Assembly: GCA_965207885.1 (NCBI GenBank)
Contig: OZ242311.1
Location: 1,408,001-1,472,000 of the forward strand
Source of the DNA: Candidatus Latescibacterota bacterium
GTDB lineage: Bacteria; Latescibacterota; UBA2968
Length of the DNA: 64,000 bases
Direction: 5' to 3'
Shown here: in pieces, positions 18,734-33,284 of the stretch
How positions within the stretch are numbered: the stretch's first letter is position 1
How the letters are laid out: the number at the start of each line of letters is the position of its first letter
Notes under the pieces: model-generated
Databases searched by the model: none
Seen by the model: the letters and a program-made list of their open reading frames with translations, nothing else
What the model was told of the DNA's origin: nothing
Translations under genes and position numbers: made by a program

Positions 18734-18735
18734 AT

Positions 18736-18791
18736 GTAGGTGGCGGTTGAACTGCTATCGCAGTTGTACATCACTCGAAACCGCCACCTAC
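18736..18791. repeat. GTAG-ended REP-like inverted repeat
   Basis: GTAGGTGGCGGTT..AACCGCCACCTAC, perfect 13-bp arms, with inner hairpin AACTGC-TATC-GCAGTT. Confidence 0.7.
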
Positions 18792-19953: not shown

Positions 19954-19991
19954 AGCCGCATTTTTGAGCCGCTTATTGGTCTTTCAATAAT

Positions 19992-22900
19992 GTGGACATC
20001 GCTATGGTCCCAAGTCTTTCTCCCCATTTTCTCTCACTGGACCTCGAAGTCAGCAAGCAAGATCACCGCATTCGCGCATTCGCTGCGGTGCGTCCAGATG
20101 TTGAGCAGCCACTGGTTTTCCAAGGCGGCGATCTGGCAGCGGCGTTGGCGGAGCTCGACGACTTCGCTGATGGCGTGGACTTCCTGCTCGGCCACAACCT
20201 GATCACTTTCGATCTACCACATCTTAAAGCTGCAAAACCCAATCTACGAATGCTGAACCTACCGCCGGTAGATACATTGTGGCTCAACCCCCTCGCATTT
20301 CCCCGCAATCCCTATCACCACCTCGTCAAACACTATCAGGATGGACAGCTCAAACGCGGGCGATTAAACGACCCGGAACTCGACGCCCGACTCGCGCTGA
20401 AAGTCTTCGACAGTCAGCAAACCGCGTTACGCGATGCGCCACTTAGCTTACTCGCCGCGTGGCACTATCTGACCGGAACAGGACCTGACAGCGCGGGGTT
20501 CGACGCCGTATTCGCTGCCATAAGGTACTCGCCTCGGCCAAACGAAGCAGCAGCCAATGCGGCGATCCGCGAGCGACTTGCGGGCATCGCCTGCCAGAAT
20601 CGCGGTCAGGACATTCTCGAGAATGTCGCTCAAAGCGGCTGGCCACTTGCTTACGCGCTGGCCTGGCTATCGGTTTCTGGCGGTAATTCTGTGATGCCTC
20701 CGTGGGTTCGACATCAGTTTCCAGAAGCCAGTAAGCTGGTTCGCCAACTACGGGATATGCCCTGTGGCGAGTCGGACTGCGACTGGTGTGGGGAGAGACA
20801 CAATCCACGCAAAGAGCTTAAACGCTGGTTTGGATTTGATGACTTCCGCTCGGAACCGGTGGACGAGGAAGGTCGTCCCCTGCAGCAGACCATCGTCGAG
20901 ACAGCGATGGTCGGGGAGCACATCCTGGGTATTTTGCCCACCGGCACCGGCAAGTCGCTCTGCTACCAGATCCCGGCTTTATCTCGCTATGACAAGACCG
21001 GTGCTCTCACAGTGGTGATTTCGCCTCTGGTCGCGCTCATGGCGGATCAAGTGGCGGGGCTGGAGGCACACGGAATCGGCTCCTGTGTGGCTATCAACGG
21101 GTTGCTGTCCATGCCCGAGCGAGCCGATGCGTTAGACCGGGTTCGACTCGGGGACGCAGGCATCCTCATCATCTCACCGGAGCAACTCCGAAATCATTCT
21201 CTGCACAGGGTACTGGATCAACGCGAAATCGGTGCCTGGGTGCTGGACGAAGCCCATTGCCTCTCAAAGTGGGGGCACGACTTCCGACCCGATTATCGCT
21301 ACGTGGGGCGCTTCATCCGCGAAAAAGCAGGACAAGAGCCGATCCCGCCAGTGTTATGCCTGACCGCGACAGCCAAACTCGACGTGGTGGCGGACATCAA
21401 GCAGCATTTCCGAGATGAACTCGGTGTAAGACTGAAGGTTTTCGACGGCGGTGCCCATCGCACCAATCTGGAATTCACAGTGATGCCGACGACCGGGGGA
21501 GAGAAGTTCTCGCACATCCATCAGATTCTAATGACTGACTTGCCACCGGATATGCCCGGAGGTGCCATCGTCTATTGTGCGACGCAACGGCGGACCGAAG
21601 AGGTGGCCGAATTCCTGCAGGACAAAGAAATCGCGGCTGACTACTTCCACGCCGGGCTGCCGCCCGATACCAAGAAGAATGTACAGCAGTGCTTCATCAG
21701 CGGCGAACTGCGCGTGATCGCGGCCACCAATGCCTTCGGCATGGGCATCGACAAACCGGATGTGCGGCTGGTGATCCACGCCGACATCCCCGGGTCGTTG
21801 GAGAACTACCTGCAGGAGGCGGGTCGCGCCGGACGAGACCGACAGTCGGCGCATTGCGTACTACTCTATGCGACGGACGATGTGGAGAGACAATTCTTCA
21901 TGTCGGCGCGTTCGCGGCTCACCCGGCGGGAGATTCACGGCGTCCTGAGAGCACTACGTAACCTCGATCGGAAGAAGCGGCTGGGCGGCGAGGTCGTAGC
22001 CACCGCCGGCGAGATCTTCGGCGAGGACGACGAAAAGGTGTTCGAGAGGGACTCAGCCACAGACGATACCCGCGTGCGAACCGCCATCTCCTGGCTTGAG
22101 GAAGCGATACTATTGACCCGAAATGAGAACCGGATTCAAATATTTCCTTCGTCTCTCCGGGTGGATTCGGTTGAGGAAGCATGCAGTCGGTTGGCGAAGG
22201 TACCCATGGCCAGCGACTACCGGAGACGACTACTCAGAATCGCCGAGACATTGATCGATGCCGACCCCGATGAGGGCATCTCCACCGACGATCTAATGGG
22301 CGTATCCGGCCTGAGTGCCGAAGGTGTACGCGGTGCCCTGTACGACCTGGAGCGGCTGGGCATCGCCAGCAACGATACGGCGCTGACCGCCTTTGTACAC
22401 GCGGGAGTCGTGCGTAACTCACGCAAGCGCTTTGATGAAGCGATGGAGTTGGAAACTGCCCTGATCGCACAGATGCGAGAGGCGGCACCGAATATGGTCA
22501 AAGGAGACACCTCAGTCCTGCATTTGCGCGTCGCCGCACAATCCCTGCGAGATGCAGGGGTGGTTGATCCCCTGCCGGAACGACTATGGCGTATTCTCCG
22601 CAGCATCGCCAACGACGGACGAGGAGAAGGGGGCGACGCTGGCAGCCTCGGGGTACGACGGTGGGATGCGGAGACGGTACGGGTGACGTTACGACGTGAG
22701 TGGTCGGATTTGGAGGAACTCGCGTCGCGTCGGCGCGAGGGAGCAAAGCGCCTGCTGGATCACTTGCTCGCCTGCCTGCCGCCCGGAAGTCGAGGTACGG
22801 ACCTGCTGGTCGAGACCACCCTCGGCAAGCTGTTGGAAGCGATCACGTCCGACCTATTTATAGAGAGTAGAAATCCTGAAAAGTTGCTGGATCGCGCGCT

Positions 22901-25169
22901 CCTGTGGCTGCACGAGCAGGAAGTCATTCGTCTCAACAAGGGCCTTGCGGTATTCCGTCCAGCCATGACCATCCGGCTTGAAGAGGAAAGGCGCGGCTTC
23001 GCCAATGCTGACTTTGCACCGCTCGATTTTCACTACAAGGGGCAGGTACTACAGATCCATGTAATGGTGGAATTCGCGCAGCGGGGCCTCAACAACATAG
23101 CCGACGCTCTGCGTCTGGCCATTGACTACTTCAGCCTGAAGCAGGAGGATTTCCTTCGCCGCTGGCTACCAGATCGGGATAAGGAAATTGCAAGGGAGAC
23201 CACGCCCGAATCGTGGAGAGCCATCGTCGAAAGTCTGAAAAATCCCATTCAGCAGCGCATCGTTGCGGATGATCGGGAGCAGACGAACGTGCTGGTACTC
23301 GCCGGTCCCGGCTCCGGTAAGACGCGCGTGCTGGTGCATCGCATCGCCTACCTCATACGCGCAAGGCGCGAAAATCCCCGCGGCATTCTGGCCCTGGCCT
23401 ACAACCGACACGCGGCAGTCGAGATCCGGCGACGCCTCATAGATTTGATCGGCGACGACGCCCGCGGAGTAACCGTGCTCACCTGTCACGCTCTCGCCAT
23501 GCGACTGGTCGGTGTCAGCTTTCAAGAGCGAGAACGCCGGCTACTTGACGACGATGCATTCCGAGAGGTTTTGCGCCAGGCAACGGCCCTGCTGCGCGGC
23601 GAGGGGCTGGAGCCAGAAGAAGCGGATGATCAGCGGGAACGGCTTCTCGCGGGTTTCCGCTGGATTCTGGTAGATGAATACCAGGACATTGGCGCGGATC
23701 AATACGAGTTGATATCTGCCTTGGCCGGACGAACCCTGAAAGATGAGGATCGCAAGCTCACCCTCTTCGCAGTAGGCGACGACGACCAGAACATCTACGC
23801 CTTCAACGGTGCTTCGGTAGAGTTCATCCGTCGTTTCGAGGCGGATTACGGTCCAAAGCCCACCTACCTGATCGACAACTACCGATCCACTGACCACATC
23901 ATCGCAACGGCCAACGCGCTGATTAACCCGGCGCGCCAACGGATGAAGACCGGACATCCCATCCGCATTGACCGGGCGCGTGCGAAGAATCCGCCTGGTG
24001 GCAACTGGGATGCGCTGGACCCGATCTCTCGCGGTCGAGTCCAGATTCTATCCACCTGGCGCGATCCGATCTCGCAAGCGCAGGTCGCAATGGCAGAGTT
24101 ACAGCGTCTCGCAGCACTCTCTCCGAATTGGGATTGGTCCACATGTGCGGTGATCGCACGAGAGTGGAAATATCTGGATCCGGTACAAGCGTTTTGCGAA
24201 GTCCACCATATCCCGGTGCAAATAGGAAACGAAGAAATCCCGAGCTTCTGGCACCTGCGGGAAACCCGAGAATTTGTTGAATGGCTGCGTGGACGAGATA
24301 CCCGCCTGGTAGAAGGTGCGGATCTAAGCAATTGGGTAGATGCACATCCCCCAGGACCCTGGATTGAGCTACTGCAGCAAGCCCTGGAGGAGCACGCCCT
24401 GGAAACCGGTGGCGCGGAAGTACCGGTGGACCACTTCATCGAGTGGCTGGCCGAGTGGGGACGAGATATACGCCGCCGCCAGCGTGGACTCTTGCTGTTG
24501 ACCGCACACCGCGCCAAAGGATTGGAGTTTGATCACATAGTAGTACTCGACGGAGGCTGGAACAAAGTCGATAGGGGCGAAGACCCGGACGCACCGCGCA
24601 GACTCTACTACGTAGCCATGACGCGCGCCCGGCAGACTCTCGCGCTCGTGCGTTTTCAAGGATTGCGCCCGGCAGGAGGTACACGACCAGATTTCGTAAT
24701 GGAATCTGAACCTCCAGTGTACGGACGCTTGCACTCGCTACCGTATTCCTTTCCAAACAACGGCTCGGTTCTACACCGCACATCCGGTGACTCGCAACCG
24801 GAAACCCTGGAACTCGCACGTCAATATCGGCGACCCAGTCTGCGCGAAGTCAATCTGGGATTCGCAGGGCGTTACTACACCAACCATCCAGTCCATCGTG
24901 CAATAGCCGCCCTGTCGCCCGGTGATCCGATAGAGACGCGGATTGCCAAAACTGGCTCCTGGGAATTGCTGAACCAGTCGGGAATGGTGGTGGGGCGTCT
25001 TGCCCAGGCGTTTGAACCCCCATTGGGAATGCGGTGCAAGTCTGCCACAGTCTTCGCCGTCGTAGATTGGAGCCGCGAAGCATCGGAACCGCAGTACCGA
25101 GACCACGCGAAATGCGATGCCTGGGAGGTTGTGGTGCCGGAGTTGGTGTTCGAGCCGGAGCGCGAGTAG
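19992..25169 (+). CDS. Fusion of an exonuclease-like domain, RecQ (SF2) helicase, UvrD (SF1) helicase and a C-terminal HIRAN-like domain
   Basis: N-terminal SLDLEV..GHNLITFD..DTL; RecQ motifs PTGTGKSLCYQ, DEAHCLSKWGHDFRPDY, LTATA, ATNAFGMGID, QEAGRAGRD; UvrD motifs AGPGSGKT, DEYQD, VGDDDQNIY, NYRS, HRAKGLEFD, YVAMTRA. Confidence 0.9.
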   Translation: MDIAMVPSLSPHFLSLDLEVSKQDHRIRAFAAVRPDVEQPLVFQGGDLAAALAELDDFADGVDFLLGHNLITFDLPHLKAAKPNLRMLNLPPVDTLWLNPLAFPRNPYHHLVKHYQDGQLKRGRLNDPELDARLALKVFDSQQTALRDAPLSLLAAWHYLTGTGPDSAGFDAVFAAIRYSPRPNEAAANAAIRERLAGIACQNRGQDILENVAQSGWPLAYALAWLSVSGGNSVMPPWVRHQFPEASKLVRQLRDMPCGESDCDWCGERHNPRKELKRWFGFDDFRSEPVDEEGRPLQQTIVETAMVGEHILGILPTGTGKSLCYQIPALSRYDKTGALTVVISPLVALMADQVAGLEAHGIGSCVAINGLLSMPERADALDRVRLGDAGILIISPEQLRNHSLHRVLDQREIGAWVLDEAHCLSKWGHDFRPDYRYVGRFIREKAGQEPIPPVLCLTATAKLDVVADIKQHFRDELGVRLKVFDGGAHRTNLEFTVMPTTGGEKFSHIHQILMTDLPPDMPGGAIVYCATQRRTEEVAEFLQDKEIAADYFHAGLPPDTKKNVQQCFISGELRVIAATNAFGMGIDKPDVRLVIHADIPGSLENYLQEAGRAGRDRQSAHCVLLYATDDVERQFFMSARSRLTRREIHGVLRALRNLDRKKRLGGEVVATAGEIFGEDDEKVFERDSATDDTRVRTAISWLEEAILLTRNENRIQIFPSSLRVDSVEEACSRLAKVPMASDYRRRLLRIAETLIDADPDEGISTDDLMGVSGLSAEGVRGALYDLERLGIASNDTALTAFVHAGVVRNSRKRFDEAMELETALIAQMREAAPNMVKGDTSVLHLRVAAQSLRDAGVVDPLPERLWRILRSIANDGRGEGGDAGSLGVRRWDAETVRVTLRREWSDLEELASRRREGAKRLLDHLLACLPPGSRGTDLLVETTLGKLLEAITSDLFIESRNPEKLLDRALLWLHEQEVIRLNKGLAVFRPAMTIRLEEERRGFANADFAPLDFHYKGQVLQIHVMVEFAQRGLNNIADALRLAIDYFSLKQEDFLRRWLPDRDKEIARETTPESWRAIVESLKNPIQQRIVADDREQTNVLVLAGPGSGKTRVLVHRIAYLIRARRENPRGILALAYNRHAAVEIRRRLIDLIGDDARGVTVLTCHALAMRLVGVSFQERERRLLDDDAFREVLRQATALLRGEGLEPEEADDQRERLLAGFRWILVDEYQDIGADQYELISALAGRTLKDEDRKLTLFAVGDDDQNIYAFNGASVEFIRRFEADYGPKPTYLIDNYRSTDHIIATANALINPARQRMKTGHPIRIDRARAKNPPGGNWDALDPISRGRVQILSTWRDPISQAQVAMAELQRLAALSPNWDWSTCAVIAREWKYLDPVQAFCEVHHIPVQIGNEEIPSFWHLRETREFVEWLRGRDTRLVEGADLSNWVDAHPPGPWIELLQQALEEHALETGGAEVPVDHFIEWLAEWGRDIRRRQRGLLLLTAHRAKGLEFDHIVVLDGGWNKVDRGEDPDAPRRLYYVAMTRARQTLALVRFQGLRPAGGTRPDFVMESEPPVYGRLHSLPYSFPNNGSVLHRTSGDSQPETLELARQYRRPSLREVNLGFAGRYYTNHPVHRAIAALSPGDPIETRIAKTGSWELLNQSGMVVGRLAQAFEPPLGMRCKSATVFAVVDWSREASEPQYRDHAKCDAWEVVVPELVFEPERE

Positions 25170-25200
25170 CACACCAAAAACTGTTTATTCAGAATTTTCC

Positions 25201-25229
25201 TTGATGATTTGGCGTCTTAATGGTACACT
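25201..25229 (+). promoter_or_regulatory. Possible sigma-70 promoter of the toxin-antitoxin pair
   Basis: TTGATG-17 bp-TACACT, followed by a GGAGG RBS. Confidence 0.45.
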
Positions 25230-25268
25230 TTATACGCGATGTGTGACTTCAAATTGGAGGTAAAGAAG

Positions 25269-25511
25269 ATGGCCAGCATGACTATACGTAATCTTAGCGA
25301 CGACATTAAGCAGCGTCTGCGCATCCAGGCGGCTGAGCATGGCCACTCAATGGAAGAGGAAGCGCGGATAATTTTGCGTGCTGCGCTTATGGAGCACACG
25401 CCTCCCATCAATTTAGCACGCGCTATACACGACCGATTCGCGCCTCTGGGCGGTGTGGAACTGGATATACCGCCTCGCGAGCCGATGCGCGCCCCACCCC
25501 GATTCGGTTGA
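25269..25511 (+). CDS. FitA-like ribbon-helix-helix antitoxin
   Basis: MASMTIRNLSDDIKQRLRIQAAEHGHSMEEEAR. Confidence 0.88.
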   Translation: MASMTIRNLSDDIKQRLRIQAAEHGHSMEEEARIILRAALMEHTPPINLARAIHDRFAPLGGVELDIPPREPMRAPPRFG

Positions 25512-25521
25512 ATTATCGAAT

Positions 25522-25974
25522 ATGATCCTACTCGATACCAACGTTGTCTCGGAGTTGATGCGCTCCAAGCCCGATCCCGGCGTAAAGATGTGGCTTGCTA
25601 AACAGGACACCACAAATGTCTTCATCTCGGTGATCACAGAGGCCGAGCTACGGTACGGCGTCGCTATTCTGCCAATGGGTCGGCGGCGAGATCAGATCGC
25701 AGCCGAAGTCGAAAATATGCTCAAGGAAGATTTTGCACGACGCATTCTACCTTTTGACAGTAAGGCATCACCCATCTATGCTGAGATTGGTGCTGGTCGC
25801 CGGGCCGCTGGCCTGCCGATCAGCCACGCGGACTGCCAAATAGCAGCTATCGCCCGTTGTCGCGGGGCGGCCATCGCTACTCGCAATGTCGGGCATTTCG
25901 AGCACTGTGGCATTGAGGTAATCAACCCTTGGACCGCTCTTACAGGTCTTCAGTCAGAGAGTACAGAGACATGA
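25522..25974 (+). CDS. vapC: VapC/FitB PIN-domain toxin
   Basis: MILLDTNVVSE, AELRYG, DCQIAAIA, ATRN, INPW. Confidence 0.92.
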   Translation: MILLDTNVVSELMRSKPDPGVKMWLAKQDTTNVFISVITEAELRYGVAILPMGRRRDQIAAEVENMLKEDFARRILPFDSKASPIYAEIGAGRRAAGLPISHADCQIAAIARCRGAAIATRNVGHFEHCGIEVINPWTALTGLQSESTET

Positions 25975-26019
25975 GCACTGTAGAACAACGGGAGATCAAG
26001 ATGGAATATGGAGTAAGCT

Positions 26020-26241
26020 ATGGCGAGCCAAATTCACGTTAGTTCTAAGGCGGTTCAAGTCCCTGAGATAGCTTCCGAGCCGGATAAAACAACAAGCATG
26101 CCCTCAAGCAACGCGATCATCTGGCAAGAATGGACACAAAAACGCGCCCAAGACGCGCCGACTCTTGAACAGATCCAAGAAATCACTAAAAAAGTTAAAC
26201 TCAATGTGACACAAACTATCCTGGAAGGTCGGAAAATCTAA
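26020..26241 (+). CDS. Hypothetical protein, possibly an orphan antitoxin
   Basis: 73 aa with GGAG RBS, lying between TA genes; family not recognised. Confidence 0.45.
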   Translation: MASQIHVSSKAVQVPEIASEPDKTTSMPSSNAIIWQEWTQKRAQDAPTLEQIQEITKKVKLNVTQTILEGRKI

Positions 26242-26243
26242 TA

Positions 26244-26309
26244 ATTTCAGATAAAGGCGTTTTGGCAACCATGCTCAAACACCTCGGCATTGACAGGAAG
26301 GAGTTCTGA
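26244..26309 (+). pseudogene. hicA: 3' remnant of a HicA-type toxin gene
   Basis: Reads ISDKGVLATMLKHLGIDRKEF*, resembles a HicA C-terminal helix, and ends 3 nt before the hicB ATG; the 5' part is missing. Confidence 0.65.
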
Positions 26310-26312
26310 TTC

Positions 26313-26747
26313 ATGCAATATGCCTATCCATGCAATCTGATTCCCGACCGCGAAGAGGGCGAGGGATTCATCGTGACCTTTCCCGACGTACCGGGAGCCA
26401 TAACAGGGGCGCAAACCAGAGAAGAATTTCTTTTCTTAGCCGAAGACGCCCTCGTTGCCATGCTCGCTGTGTACGTCCAACAGCAACGGGAAATCCCAAC
26501 GCCAAGCCCTGTTGCGGACGGTCAGGAACTCGTCGCAGTCCCACCTATCGCTGCCGCCAAGCTGGCCCTCTATACGGCCATGCGCGAGCAAGGAATCACT
26601 GGGGAAACACTCGCCACTCGTCTAAACCTGAGCGATTCAGCCCTTCGCAAGTTGCTCAACCCGGACTGCTTCTCCCATATCAGTCAGATCATGAAAGCAC
26701 TCCGAACCGTCGGGCGTAGCCTGGTCATAGAAGACAGAGCGGCATAG
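26313..26747 (+). CDS. hicB: HicB-family antitoxin
   Basis: GFIVTFPDVPGAITGAQTREE..AEDAL plus a C-terminal HTH. Confidence 0.88.
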   Translation: MQYAYPCNLIPDREEGEGFIVTFPDVPGAITGAQTREEFLFLAEDALVAMLAVYVQQQREIPTPSPVADGQELVAVPPIAAAKLALYTAMREQGITGETLATRLNLSDSALRKLLNPDCFSHISQIMKALRTVGRSLVIEDRAA

Positions 26748-26771
26748 TTGCCCAAATGTAAAAAAACCTTT

Positions 26772-26866
26772 CTGGATTGCGGCTAAAACCCTGCCGCAAT
26801 GACGGGCGAGGCATGCCTCGCCCCTACAGCACCATAGCCTGCCCCGCATGCTTTAAGCAGGGGCCG
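26772..26866. repeat. Cluster of REP-like palindromes
   Basis: CTGGATTGCGGC..GCCGCAATGAC (26772-26803), GGGCGAGGCATGCCTCGCCCCTAC (26804-26827, GTAG type), and a third imperfect hairpin. Confidence 0.65.
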
Positions 26867-26920
26867 CGATGACGGATTTCAGATACAGCGCATGCTACAA
26901 AATAAAAACAGGAGTATAAC

Positions 26921-29145: not shown

Positions 29146-29255
29146 TGAGGTATCTTTCTTTTGTTTGCCTGTCGTTGTATAAAATAGCGAATCGCAGACC
29201 TTAATGTGTGGGCGGTTCGCTGATTTTTTATGCGGAGCGATACAGGGAGAACAAT

Positions 29256-32200
29256 ATGGGATCGGAAGTTCGGGACAATGTAAAACGGGATTTTTCTCGC
29301 ACATTTGAGATTACAACCCGGCGGCCCGTAGCGATTTTTATGGTCGTCCTGGCCGTTGCCGTATTTGGTTATGTGTCTTATCAGCAACTGCCGCTAAACA
29401 TGATGCCCGACATTTCATATCCAACATTAACAGTGCGTACTGAATATCCCGATACCGCACCCGAAGAAGTTGAAAATTTGATCTCAAGGCCCATTGAACA
29501 GCGCCTGGGGGTTGTGAGCAATCTCGTAAGCATTACATCGATCTCCAGACCTGGCATGTCCGATGTCATTTTGGAATTTGGCTGGGACACCGATATGAAT
29601 GACGCCGTGCAAACAGTGCGCGAAAACCTCGACCGCCTCAACTTGCCGCGCGGGGTCAATCGCCCATTGATATTGCGCTACGACCCCACGCAAGATCCAA
29701 TCATGCGCGTTGGGATTTACGACACCGAAAATATGTATGTATTGCGCCATATCGCCGAAGAAGAAATCAAGCAAGAACTGGAAGCGCTCAAAGGCGTAGC
29801 AGCGGCGCGTGTAAAAGGCGGACTCGAAGAAGAAATTCGGGTTGAAATCAGCGAACGGCAATTGGCACTGATGGGACTCAATATCAACACCATCAACCGG
29901 CGGTTGCAAGAGGAAAATGTCAACCTGGCCGGCGGCAGTTTGCTGGATGGACAAACGCAGTACCTCGTGCGTACGCTGAATGAATTTCGCACCATTGACG
30001 AAATTGCCAATCTGGTGGTAGGCGACCGCAACAACATTGAAATCCGGGTAAAAGATGTGGGGCAAGTTTATCGCACGCACAAGGAGCGGGAGATCATCAC
30101 GCGGGTCAATGGCATAGAAAGTGTAGAAATCGAAATTTTTAAGGAAGCCGACGCCAATATCGTAGCCACAGCACAGCGTGTGCGCGACCGCCTGTTCGGC
30201 ACACCCGAACAATTGGCATACATAGAAAAACTCAAAGCGGGCGAGATCGAAAAAGCCAAAGCCAACGACCGGCGGGAACAGGTGCGGCAATTTGTGCAGA
30301 TGAAGGAGATGACGAGTTTTATCGCCTTTACATTGCCCGAAGGCGTGGCCATGGAAATGCTGTCCGATCAATCGACATTTATTGAATCATCGGTCAATGA
30401 GGTCAAGCAAACCGCGCTGATAGGCGGGTTATTGGCCATACTGGTCCTGTACATCTTCCTTCGCAATCCATCTCACACAGCTATTGTGGGCCTCGCCATC
30501 CCGATTTCAATTGTGGCGACATTTGCCCCCATGAACATTTTTGGCGTATCCCTGAATATCATGTCTCTGGGAGGGCTGGCACTCGGTATTGGAATGCTGG
30601 TTGACAATGCCATTGTGGTATTGGAAAGCATTTTTCGATGTCGCGAAGAAGGCGACGATATGATTTCGGCTACCATCCGGGGGACCGGGGAAGTCGGCGG
30701 AGCGGTTTTTGCATCCACGCTGACAACTGTGGCGGTGTTTTTTCCCATTGTATTTGTCGAAGGCGTGGCCGGGCAGATTTTTGGCGACATGGCACTAACC
30801 GTTGTTTTTTCACTCCTGGCATCTCTGGGCGTCGCGCTATTCTTTATCCCCATGCTGGCTTCTCGGCAAGTGCATCTGGCACGCGGCAATAGCGAAGGAC
30901 AAGGCGAGCGTCTAATGCAGTCTGAAGTATTGCAATTGCGTTCGGTCGCGTGGCTACTCGAAGGCATGGGCCTGAAAAACAGGGGCGAAAATGCGCTTCA
31001 ATATCACGCCATGAATTTTAGCACGCTGTTGATGCGCATGCCAATTGGCTTTATCTATTTACTGGGCGAATACATCGCCCGCACATTGTGGCTTGCAAGT
31101 GTAATTGCGATCGTGGCACTCAAAGCCGTATTCACCGTATTGGCCGTTCTTCTATACCCCATCATCTATCCCGGATGGGGATTTTATTGCTGGCTCGGTT
31201 CCGGACCCTTATGGCGTCGGGAAATAAATCGCCTGTGGGGACCTCTGTGCACCTGGGCTGAGGATCGCGACCTGTTTGGCAAAGCATGGGTGCGGATCAT
31301 ATGGGATGATTTGCTGGCATTTGTAACGCCCCAAAATTTGGGACGCGACTTGAGTGTGCAAATGCGATGGACAGGGAGTACATTGAAGCGTCTGTTCCGC
31401 TGGGTCGGGAAGCACGCGATCTGGAAGCGCGTCTTAAAAATCGCACCCGTGCTCCTCGGCTCAGTAGGCGTTTTGCTGCTCTTTGTGCTCGGTGCGGTTT
31501 ATTTTCTTCTTCGATTTCTGATCTTTACAACACTCATCCTGGTAGGCAAAATACTGATCTTGACACTCATGTTTGTATTTTTAACCGGATTGGTCGCATT
31601 GCTGGTGATCGCCCTTGTCCTGTTGCCCATCCTCGCGCCAGTACTGTTTTTGTTTGAGCGCGGTTTTGCAGCCATTCGGCGCGCTTACACGCCTTTTATC
31701 CGCTGGGCTTTGCACAACAGACTGAGCATTGTAGCGGGTGCTGTGGTGCCTTTTGCGATATGCTGGATGGTCTTGTTGCCCCGATTGGGCAATGAATTGA
31801 TCCCACAGGTGCATCAGGGCGAGTTTAATGTGGATATTGGTTTGCCCGTAGGCACACCGCTCGAAATGACCGATGAAACCCTGAAGCTCATCGAATCGCG
31901 GGTGATGGATGCTTATGATGTGGGCGCGATTTCTTCGACAGTTGGCGTGGATAAAACCGATATCACATCGTCTGATCAGGGCGAGCACACCGGAGTTGTG
32001 TCTGTAGTGCTGGAGGATATCGAAACAGAGATCCCCCAAAATGTAATGGCGGGTTGGGGGCAAGACCTCCTGACATTGCCCGCACGTATTTGGGGCGGCA
32101 TCAAAGGGGAAAGTGTTTTGGCACAGCGCGAAGACGCATTGATGGCTGATTTGCGAAACAGGCTCTCGGATTTGCCGCAGATAAAAGCCGATTTTTCACG

Positions 32201-33284
32201 CCCTGCACTATTTAGTTTTAAGACACCTATAGAAGTAGAAATTCGCGGTTATGATTTGCCAACATTGACCCAATTGGGGCGCGAAGCCGAGCGGGTAATG
32301 AGCGAGATTCCCGGACTTTACGATGTGAAATCGAGCCTTCAGCGCGGCAACCCGGAAGTGCAAATTGTCTATAAGCGTGAATTGTTAGCAAAATACAACT
32401 TGAATGTGCGTCAGGTAGCCTCGCTGGTGCGCGAAAAAGTACAGGGCAATGTGGTGACGCGATTTCGAGAGGCCGACCGACGCATTGATGTGCTGGTGCG
32501 CGTAGATGAGGCCGACCGCGCCGGAGTAACTGAGTTGCGTCGGCTGGTGGTGAACCCGGGACGACAGCAAGTGCCCATTCGCCTATCTGCGATAGCCGAA
32601 ATTGAAGTACACGAAGGACCGAGTGAAATTCGGCGCATAGATCAACAGCGCGCAGTTCTGATTTCAGCCAATGTGAGCGGTATAGACCTGGGAACAATGA
32701 CCGCTATGATTCAGCAGGCACTGGAAACAATGGAAGTACCCCAGGATGTGTCGATGGTCATTGGCGGGCAAAACAAAGAAATGGAGACATCGTTGAACAG
32801 TTTGACCTTTGCATTGGCTCTCGCAATTTTTCTCGTGTACATCGTAATGGCCTCGCAATTTGAATCATTTCTCCATCCATTCGTAATTATGTTTAGCATT
32901 CCACTGGCACTGATTGGCGTAATCGTCATTCTATTTCTCACGGGCATACCTCTTTCCGTCGTGGTGTTTTTGGGCGTTATCATGCTGGCGGGCATTGTGG
33001 TGAACAATGCCATTGTGCTCGTAGATTATATCAACCATCTGCGGCGCAGTGGTCTGTCCAAATTGGAAGCAATCGCGCAGGCCGGCGAAGTGCGATTGCG
33101 CCCCATCTTGATGACCACATCGACAACCGTGCTGGGATTATTGCCCATGGCACTCGGCCTGGGCGATGGCGCAGAAATCCGCACGCCAATGGCGATCACC
33201 GTCGTTGCCGGACTAATCAGTTCCACCCTATTAACACTGGTAATTATTCCAACCGTATATTCTCTAATGGACCGCAGCGAATGA
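29256..33284 (+). CDS. RND efflux permease (AcrB/AcrD/AcrF family) with a large hydrophobic insertion
   Basis: RRPVA, GMLVDNAIVVLE, GIVVNNAIVLVD, RLRPILMTT; GGGAGA RBS before ATG at 29256. Confidence 0.93.
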   Translation: MGSEVRDNVKRDFSRTFEITTRRPVAIFMVVLAVAVFGYVSYQQLPLNMMPDISYPTLTVRTEYPDTAPEEVENLISRPIEQRLGVVSNLVSITSISRPGMSDVILEFGWDTDMNDAVQTVRENLDRLNLPRGVNRPLILRYDPTQDPIMRVGIYDTENMYVLRHIAEEEIKQELEALKGVAAARVKGGLEEEIRVEISERQLALMGLNINTINRRLQEENVNLAGGSLLDGQTQYLVRTLNEFRTIDEIANLVVGDRNNIEIRVKDVGQVYRTHKEREIITRVNGIESVEIEIFKEADANIVATAQRVRDRLFGTPEQLAYIEKLKAGEIEKAKANDRREQVRQFVQMKEMTSFIAFTLPEGVAMEMLSDQSTFIESSVNEVKQTALIGGLLAILVLYIFLRNPSHTAIVGLAIPISIVATFAPMNIFGVSLNIMSLGGLALGIGMLVDNAIVVLESIFRCREEGDDMISATIRGTGEVGGAVFASTLTTVAVFFPIVFVEGVAGQIFGDMALTVVFSLLASLGVALFFIPMLASRQVHLARGNSEGQGERLMQSEVLQLRSVAWLLEGMGLKNRGENALQYHAMNFSTLLMRMPIGFIYLLGEYIARTLWLASVIAIVALKAVFTVLAVLLYPIIYPGWGFYCWLGSGPLWRREINRLWGPLCTWAEDRDLFGKAWVRIIWDDLLAFVTPQNLGRDLSVQMRWTGSTLKRLFRWVGKHAIWKRVLKIAPVLLGSVGVLLLFVLGAVYFLLRFLIFTTLILVGKILILTLMFVFLTGLVALLVIALVLLPILAPVLFLFERGFAAIRRAYTPFIRWALHNRLSIVAGAVVPFAICWMVLLPRLGNELIPQVHQGEFNVDIGLPVGTPLEMTDETLKLIESRVMDAYDVGAISSTVGVDKTDITSSDQGEHTGVVSVVLEDIETEIPQNVMAGWGQDLLTLPARIWGGIKGESVLAQREDALMADLRNRLSDLPQIKADFSRPALFSFKTPIEVEIRGYDLPTLTQLGREAERVMSEIPGLYDVKSSLQRGNPEVQIVYKRELLAKYNLNVRQVASLVREKVQGNVVTRFREADRRIDVLVRVDEADRAGVTELRRLVVNPGRQQVPIRLSAIAEIEVHEGPSEIRRIDQQRAVLISANVSGIDLGTMTAMIQQALETMEVPQDVSMVIGGQNKEMETSLNSLTFALALAIFLVYIVMASQFESFLHPFVIMFSIPLALIGVIVILFLTGIPLSVVVFLGVIMLAGIVVNNAIVLVDYINHLRRSGLSKLEAIAQAGEVRLRPILMTTSTTVLGLLPMALGLGDGAEIRTPMAITVVAGLISSTLLTLVIIPTVYSLMDRSE

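Follow-up and report, generated by a model that had tools for sequence, protein, structure and literature searches.

The closest described relatives of the protein reported here each share a part of its architecture. WRN holds an N-terminal DEDD-fold 3′–5′ exonuclease, of the DEDDy type, and a RecQ-family core in one chain, together with RQC and HRDC domains. Gram-positive DinG (S. aureus/B. subtilis type) pairs a DEDDh exonuclease with an XPD-like motor, while UvrD, PcrA and Rep, as well as eukaryotic FBH1, carry the full motif set of superfamily 1A (SF1A) helicases. RecBCD and AddAB, multi-subunit machines with opposite-polarity SF1 motors and a PD-(D/E)xK nuclease, are functional analogues in bringing two motors and a nuclease to DNA ends, and HIRAN domains are found in HLTF, Rad5 and the L. 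plantarum protein lp_0118. Here we describe a gene at 19992–25169 on the plus strand of a 64,000-nucleotide stretch of a Candidatus Latescibacterota bacterium (the window; contig OZ242311.1 of assembly GCA_965207885.1, positions 1,408,001–1,472,000). The evidence firmly places five elements in its one polypeptide: a DEDD-fold exonuclease-like domain, a RecQ-type superfamily 2 (SF2) motor, a conserved middle region, a UvrD-type SF1A motor and a HIRAN-like end.

The gene is a single uninterrupted open reading frame (ORF) with a GTG start that encodes 1725 amino acids (coordinates include the stop codon), and no rival long ORF was found. Because relatives align only from residues 3–14 onwards, an ATG at 20004 may be the true start. 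A Pfam scan placed both motors on the same chain: DEAD (residues 295–468, 5.2e-31) and Helicase_C (518–616, 2.4e-21) make up the first, and UvrD-helicase (from residue 1084, 9.3e-40), AAA_19 and UvrD_C (1501–1553, 1.9e-11) the second. All conservation figures below derive from 63 full-length relatives spanning more than 10 phyla, for which the N-terminus (A1), the middle (A2) and the C-terminus (A3) were aligned separately; structures were predicted for A1 and A3. Judged by these alignments, both ATPase motif sets and the four putative metal-binding acidic residues are strictly conserved, and column identity in the motor domains lies at 0.86–0.92. The first-pass annotation, made from the sequence of the window, had proposed this exonuclease/RecQ/UvrD/HIRAN order, guessing at both ends by eye, and the Pfam matches, the alignments and the predicted folds bear it out, the two guesses included. 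The Walker A motifs that it pointed to (RecQ K321 near nucleotide 20937, UvrD K1110 near nucleotide 23304) are at least 97% conserved, and its N-terminal DxE/GHN/FD/D, CxxxxCxxC and C-terminal ALSPGDPI...VVGRLA segments are all present in the translation. The only label given to the protein by the sources is ‘RecQ family ATP-dependent DNA helicase’.

At the N-terminus, residues ~8–148 (20013–20435, plus strand) are predicted to adopt a DEDD (DnaQ-like) 3′–5′ exonuclease fold. D17-x-E19, G67-H68-N69, F73-D74 and D131 are invariant, and the assignment to the DEDD group follows from the fold together with the four acidic residues of Exo I–III (D17, E19, D74 and D131). Sequence signals for this domain appear weak but consistent: a PDB profile search with the N-terminus gave a weak match to DinG (E 0.024), and the only Pfam matches were likewise weak, to DNA_pol_B_exo1 in 12 of the 63 members (best E 0.025) and to RNase_T in six (best E 0.042). 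A new observation of this analysis concerns the fifth catalytic residue, the His of DEDDh or the Tyr of DEDDy enzymes, which is absent from the Exo III position. In a hidden Markov model alignment, the place of the catalytic His of DinG (in ‘AHRADEDA’) is taken by Asn126, a residue with at least 90% conservation, and a 30%-identical relative from Nostoc likewise has Asn there. The metal site thus looks intact and the usual general base missing; exonuclease activity is likely, yet not assured, because the Exo III His is replaced by Asn. An invariant PYHxLxKH loop contains two further histidines, H109 and H114, as candidate substitutes. The domain is followed by a helical subdomain (residues ~150–255; 20439–20756, plus strand) with invariant W217, W225 and W238 and a GGNSVMPPW block; part of this subdomain aligns with S. 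aureus DinG past the exonuclease domain of the latter. Immediately N-terminal to the helicase core lies a Cys3-His motif, C258-x4-C263-x2-C266-x3-H270 (20763–20801, plus strand), a putative zinc knuckle that the Nostoc relative lacks; its three cysteines are invariant, and H270 shows at least 90% conservation.

The first motor, a RecQ-family SF2 core, occupies residues 276–640 (20817–21911, plus strand), with K321 in a PTGTGKS Walker A motif and a DEAH box at 419–422. It passed the NCBIfam RecQ subfamily model TIGR00614 (302.9 bits against a cut-off of 219.8, residues 294–634) and failed the bacterial RecQ equivalogs TIGR01389 (337.6 against 640.2) and PRK11057 (258.5 against 1015). These cut-offs failed because only positions 5–342 of the 591 in the equivalog profile match, which correspond to the two RecA-like domains; the RecQ zinc-binding, RQC and HRDC domains were not among the 10 Pfam families found at E up to 0.1. 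The second motor, a UvrD/Rep-type SF1A core, spans residues 1084–1553 (23241–24650, plus strand), with K1110 in a GPGSGKT Walker A motif, DEYQD at 1228–1232 and conserved motifs III–VI. Both Pfam models were passed, PF00580 with 137.4 against a gathering threshold of 23 and PF13361 with 44.4 against 25.6, and motifs I–VI as a whole are conserved. Unlike UvrD, PcrA and Rep, with which it shares the full SF1A motif set and the UvrD-helicase and UvrD_C matches, this motor is part of a 1,725-residue fusion and stays far under every NCBIfam equivalog cut-off: those for UvrD, PcrA, Rep, HelD, AddA and RecB were all missed, the best score being 166 against 965 (helicase II). DEAH and DEYQD are each at least 97% conserved. 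Between the motors, residues 641–1083 (21912–23240, plus strand) form a region with 69% mean column identity and weak winged-helix signals (DprA_WH in 16 of the 63 members, RPA_C in 10, HTH_24 in nine). PDB sequence-profile searches with this region and with the C-terminal domain returned only rows at chance level, and an ESM Atlas search with residues 640–1085 gave scores of 0.78–0.82, under the level of 0.9 used for leads.

The chain ends in a β-rich domain (residues ~1603–1725; 24798–25166, plus strand), whose predicted structure has a HIRAN-like fold. It is preceded by a low-confidence linker (residues 1554–1602) that is ~24 residues longer in this clade. Since Pfam HIRAN (PF08797) matched none of the 63 C-terminal domains at E up to 10, and the PDB profile search with the domain returned no HIRAN chain, the resemblance would be one of fold only. 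Our HIRAN comparisons include lp_0118, and we take the structure 3k2y to be a HIRAN protein. Compared with the domains of HLTF, Rad5 and lp_0118, the one described here is C-terminal and sits on an SF1 helicase rather than on an SNF2 translocase. A profile search with the C-terminal domain across 1.84 billion representatives yielded 1,160 matches at E up to 0.001; the seven inspected from the best 150 of these were full-length members, fragments beginning within UvrD motif VI or decayed copies, and no other architecture carrying the domain was seen among these seven. Two metagenome proteins carry the domain in decayed form: in P0168 the middle region joins UvrD motif V directly, which looks like an internal deletion, and in P0137 the C-terminal domain is accompanied by an unrelated N-terminal stretch.

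Set beside the described systems, the protein shares the plan of its N-terminal half with WRN, and departs from it in having Asn and no Tyr at Exo III, in lacking Pfam matches to RQC, HRDC and RecQ_Zn_bind, and in the whole UvrD motor and HIRAN-like domain that follow. From Gram-positive DinG it differs in its RecQ-like motor and in Asn126, and from RecBCD and AddAB in uniting on one chain a DEDD nuclease with an SF2 and an SF1 motor, both of which are expected to move 3′–5′. A literature search found no description of RecQ and UvrD in one chain, nor of the whole architecture, in agreement with the earlier statement that no protein of this kind had been characterised. In the available part of the Millman preprint, matches to ‘HIRAN’ were to the author name Hirano and not to the domain. 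A 2019 paper (PMC6390638) reports a second, horizontally acquired ‘RecQ’ in Desulfonema ishimotonii (DENIS_2369) that has the ATPase domain only and shows 78% similarity to its counterpart in a mussel gill symbiont; this protein may belong to the family described here.

The structural matches are all to repair and replication proteins, which raises the alternative of an accessory genome-maintenance enzyme. The protein would then be a bacterial, single-chain counterpart of activities that remodel forks in eukaryotes, combining the exonuclease and RecQ parts of WRN with a motor like that of FBH1/UvrD and a HIRAN domain like that of HLTF. It would reverse and process stalled forks or 3′-ended gaps in host DNA and be kept where replication stress or damage is high. 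The strong and uniform sequence conservation also speaks for such a role, which we consider a serious possibility, if on balance a doubtful one. Against it stands the equipment of the host, whose genome contains one copy of the fusion gene and, besides it, a conventional RecQ at C1:2957252 (40% identical) as well as separate genes for UvrD-like proteins.

Comparison with congeners delimits the gene as part of an inserted segment of 6.9 kilobases (kb) at 19955–26898, which also contains two toxin–antitoxin (TA) pairs and REP-like repeats. The segment is missing from two congeners (G020 and G010), which join window position 19954 straight to ~26899, the stop codon of an aminotransferase gene abutting the ribosome-binding site of an Mrp/ApbC gene. 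No terminal inverted or direct repeats were found at the insert ends, only an A(A/G)TAAA microhomology at the junctions. As the first-pass annotation had stated, TA genes lie directly downstream of the helicase gene on the same strand: a FitA-like ribbon-helix-helix antitoxin (25239–25511) with a PIN toxin (ORF 25453–25974), and then a 73-residue ORF without a Pfam match (26020–26241) with a HicB-like antitoxin (26313–26747). These modules are independent cargo of the insert, because one congener (G001) retains hicB without the helicase and without the PIN pair; the PIN pair is also missing from G009, and the complements of the carrier loci L001 and L002 differ. L001 and L002 show ~90% nucleotide identity over the insert and 88–94% over the flanks, and the flanks of the empty congener G020 are 95% identical. 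On the basis of these values, the insert has been passed on together with the neighbouring DNA in some lineages, whereas very closely related ones have either lost it or never acquired it.

The state of the gene varies across the order. Among 41 genomes including its own, it is intact in 20, broken in three (G019, G029 and G040), reduced to a remnant in two (G009 and G002) and absent from 16. Within its own genus (21 genomes), nine copies are intact, one is broken, two are remnants and nine genomes have none, whereas in a second genus (13 genomes) 11 are intact, one is broken, none is a remnant and one genome lacks the gene. The gene has thus been gained, lost and decayed among close relatives; the exact empty site and the counts of decayed congener copies are new here. 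Both sides of the genome-maintenance reading are touched by these data: a gene that is near-fixed and syntenic in one genus and diverges together with its flanks would suit a repair enzyme, while its absence or decay in 12 of the 21 genomes of its own genus, two of them with a clean empty site, would not, and neither would the TA modules in the insert. The broken copies and remnants (five of the 41) and internally deleted metagenome forms such as P0168 might further suggest a decaying or non-functional fusion with no present role. We consider this very improbable, given that the window copy is intact and that the helicase motifs and DEDD acidic residues are kept in the full-length relatives from more than 10 phyla. 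In addition, metatranscriptome contigs from four libraries (four studies) cover ~90%-identical near relatives, although some are 10–12 kb multi-gene contigs for which DNA carry-over is possible, so that they are no proof of transcription.

Beyond the order, the family is found in several hundred species genomes: when a single genome of each species was scanned, at least 588 of 604 candidate stretches were confirmed, and the database search returned 6,254 matches, module-only ones included. Many of the carriers examined come from sponge-associated communities. We fetched 78 loci with 58–93% identity that span more than 10 phyla by record title, called their ORFs crudely (longest, greedy) and clustered the resulting 1,506. 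The helicase family was present in all 78 sources and the largest neighbour family in only six loci. Because no neighbouring gene is conserved as a partner across the 78 related loci, the helicase gene is a single-gene unit. In a FastTree phylogeny of the 63 full-length proteins, 12 groups required 20 changes of phylum label (minimum 11, shuffled mean 40.4), with well-supported cross-phylum sister pairs of Vicinamibacterales and Spirochaetia, Binatia and Thermodesulfobacteriota, and Dehalococcoidia and Poribacteria, the labels being submitters’ titles of metagenome bins, for some of which binning errors are possible. The by-eye impression of raised guanine-plus-cytosine (GC) content in the first-pass annotation also holds for the window (0.589 in the gene, 0.499 in the rest). 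Across the loci, gene GC partially tracks host GC (slope 0.58, r 0.71) and exceeds that of the flanks in 45 of 65, most strongly in low-GC hosts.

Plasmids provide a further line of evidence. The protein or its modules match 223 plasmid records, 23 of which carry at least 80% of the protein. These near-complete copies include those of Thiothrix (64.5%), Microvirga, Cereibacter, Rhizobium, Paracoccus, Croceicoccus, Sulfitobacter and Allochromatium (43%), and ~30%-identical forms in Nostoc are also among the plasmid copies. One of the latter, on N. punctiforme plasmid pNPUN02 (7800–12818), is annotated as three consecutive coding sequences (a RecQ family helicase, a UvrD-helicase domain protein and a ‘3′-5′ exonuclease’) and may be a split or broken copy; it adjoins an ISNCY transposase and an N-6 methylase/helicase pair. 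Phage records contained no full-length copy, all 26 matches being partial. Taken together, the empty site in two congeners, the raised GC, the phylum-mixing tree and the plasmid copies support horizontal acquisition, and the gene spreads horizontally as a single gene that crosses phylum boundaries and rides plasmids. Transfer of a 5-kb repair gene on such a scale would be unusual, which counts against the genome-maintenance reading. Alternatively, the gene might serve the mobile elements themselves, for example as a factor in plasmid or island establishment, replication or anti-restriction, with chromosomal copies as leftover cargo. The full-length copies on 23 plasmid records, the extensive transfer between phyla and the integrases, transposases or partition genes near some copies (L077, L074, L078 from the culturable Cupriavidus sp. 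UYPR2.512, and L006) would fit such a gene. We nonetheless judge it improbable: neither a conserved mobile-element partner nor terminal repeats were found, phage records hold the partial matches only, 182 of the 223 matching plasmid records are typed non-mobilizable, many chromosomal copies stand alone amid housekeeping genes, and several lineages inherit the gene stably with its flanks.

We also investigated the relation of the gene to known defence systems. In a scan of the PADLOC defence library, no model spanned the whole protein and only modules were matched, to DpdF (4e-111), PsyrT (9e-92) and GajB (2e-50). Likeness to GajB of Gabija, PsyrT/RqlH and DpdF is strong at this module level; the systems as such are not reproduced. 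The OLD-family nuclease GajA is not among the 12 neighbours scanned here, the partner PsyrA/RqlI is absent and in its place FitA/PIN and HicB-like genes lie downstream that vary independently of the helicase, and the NCBIfam DpdF model scored 194.6 against a cut-off of 550 with no dpd-like neighbours. Individual loci do have a defence-rich setting: the Allochromatium copy has a type I restriction–modification (RM) system and an HNH gene alongside, the Thiothrix copy lies 4 kb from a type I-D CRISPR-Cas system, TA pairs are near the Cereibacter copy, and insertion sequences and a methylase/helicase pair are near the Nostoc copy. Such plasmid copies beside RM or CRISPR-Cas systems are a further point against a purely host-serving repair enzyme. 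At two other loci, defence-related genes occur six to seven ORFs from the helicase and not adjacent to it, namely an ApeA-like gene (L043:4402–5709) and a HepT-like RNase gene with a caspase-domain gene (L041:19920–23157).

As a control for adjacency, flanking ORFs were scanned with Pfam and their labels classed by hand in a near and a far set, with no genome-wide background. The near set, two ORFs on each side (212 ORFs from 56 loci), had 16 loci with clear and four with ambiguous TA, RM, transposase or integrase genes; the far set, the sixth and seventh ORFs out (184 ORFs from 53 loci), had 12 clear and five ambiguous. The enrichment of defence genes around homologs that the first-pass annotation had suggested looking for thus amounts to a small difference (16/56 against 12/53 loci). 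An association with defence genes is not established, and the near-versus-far control, which is new here, weakens the defence-island argument.

Several minor features of the window remain to be mentioned. Short intergenic REP-like repeats lie at 26763–26875 and 18734–18791. Of five congener genomes searched, four each contain many further occurrences of parts of them (~30–110 nucleotides), which came up as secondary matches when the flanks were searched; in addition, the sequences of one RNA-library run are stacked very deeply in the bin of these repeats. Scans for promoters (two found, 2.4 expected) and terminators (three found, 5.0 expected) stayed at chance level. An ORF for a resistance-nodulation-division (RND) transporter at 29208–33284 encodes 1358 residues with the ACR_tran match in four stretches, ~330 residues beyond the 1021-position profile.

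The best explanation of these data is a self-contained accessory DNA enzyme that spreads as a single gene. As to what it acts on, we tentatively favour DNA that invades the cell or replicates aberrantly, for instance plasmids and rolling-circle or linear phage intermediates, with which the protein would interfere on its own; to this reading we would give slightly less than an even chance. Foreign DNA is favoured as the target because of the single-gene mobility, the loss and decay among close kin, the plasmid carriage and the occasional defence-rich contexts. The first-pass annotation had gone further and seen a horizontally acquired anti-phage or anti-plasmid protein; acquisition stands, whereas the role has neither a whole-protein defence model, nor a partner, nor an adjacency signal behind it. 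Several observations weigh against interference. The domain analogies (WRN, DinG, HLTF, UvrD) are all to repair or fork-remodelling proteins, and housekeeping RecQ and UvrD are matched at least as well as the PADLOC modules. TA, RM and mobile genes are about as frequent six to seven ORFs away as within two, and the neighbours are mostly ordinary metabolic or housekeeping genes, both of which speak for the genome-maintenance reading. Identities of 58–93% over 1,700 residues across phyla are unusually high for an immune gene; in this clade the gene diverges at the pace of its flanks, and in the second genus it is near-fixed and syntenic. Finally, the canonical Exo III His is Asn, and the Pfam HIRAN family has no match in the C-terminal domains. 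The defence reading is therefore plausible but unproven.

Since each of the recognisable modules has to do with 3′ ends or with 3′–5′ movement, a mechanism of loading at 3′ ends or forks can be proposed. A free 3′-OH end or a fork would first be bound by the HIRAN-like domain. The adjoining duplex would then be unwound or remodelled by the two motors, UvrD-like and RecQ-like, and the 3′ strand exposed in this way would be shortened by the exonuclease at the N-terminus. Such an enzyme would resemble one- or two-protein helicase–nuclease immune systems and would differ from them in sensing DNA structure, not sequence. In its most specific and, as a whole, unlikely form, this would be a one-chain immune machine, in effect a bacterial fusion of WRN, FBH1 and HLTF activities that is directed at foreign DNA and passes freely between phyla living in the same habitat, and whose HIRAN-like domain grips the 3′ end at an invader’s fork or rolling-circle intermediate while the motors reverse or strip the fork and the DEDD domain degrades the nascent strand.

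In conclusion, SF2 RecQ and SF1 UvrD motors in one chain define a large, strongly conserved and phylum-crossing family that is undescribed in the literature we found. Its plasmid carriers include culturable, genetically tractable bacteria (Cereibacter, Rhizobium, Paracoccus, Allochromatium and Thiothrix), which makes the choice between defence and repair directly testable. If the defence reading is true, the novelty would be an immune system that consists of one gene and recognises the structure of DNA; if the repair reading is true, it would be a bacterial enzyme with all its fork-remodelling activities in one protein, a parallel to three genome-stability proteins that are separate in humans.

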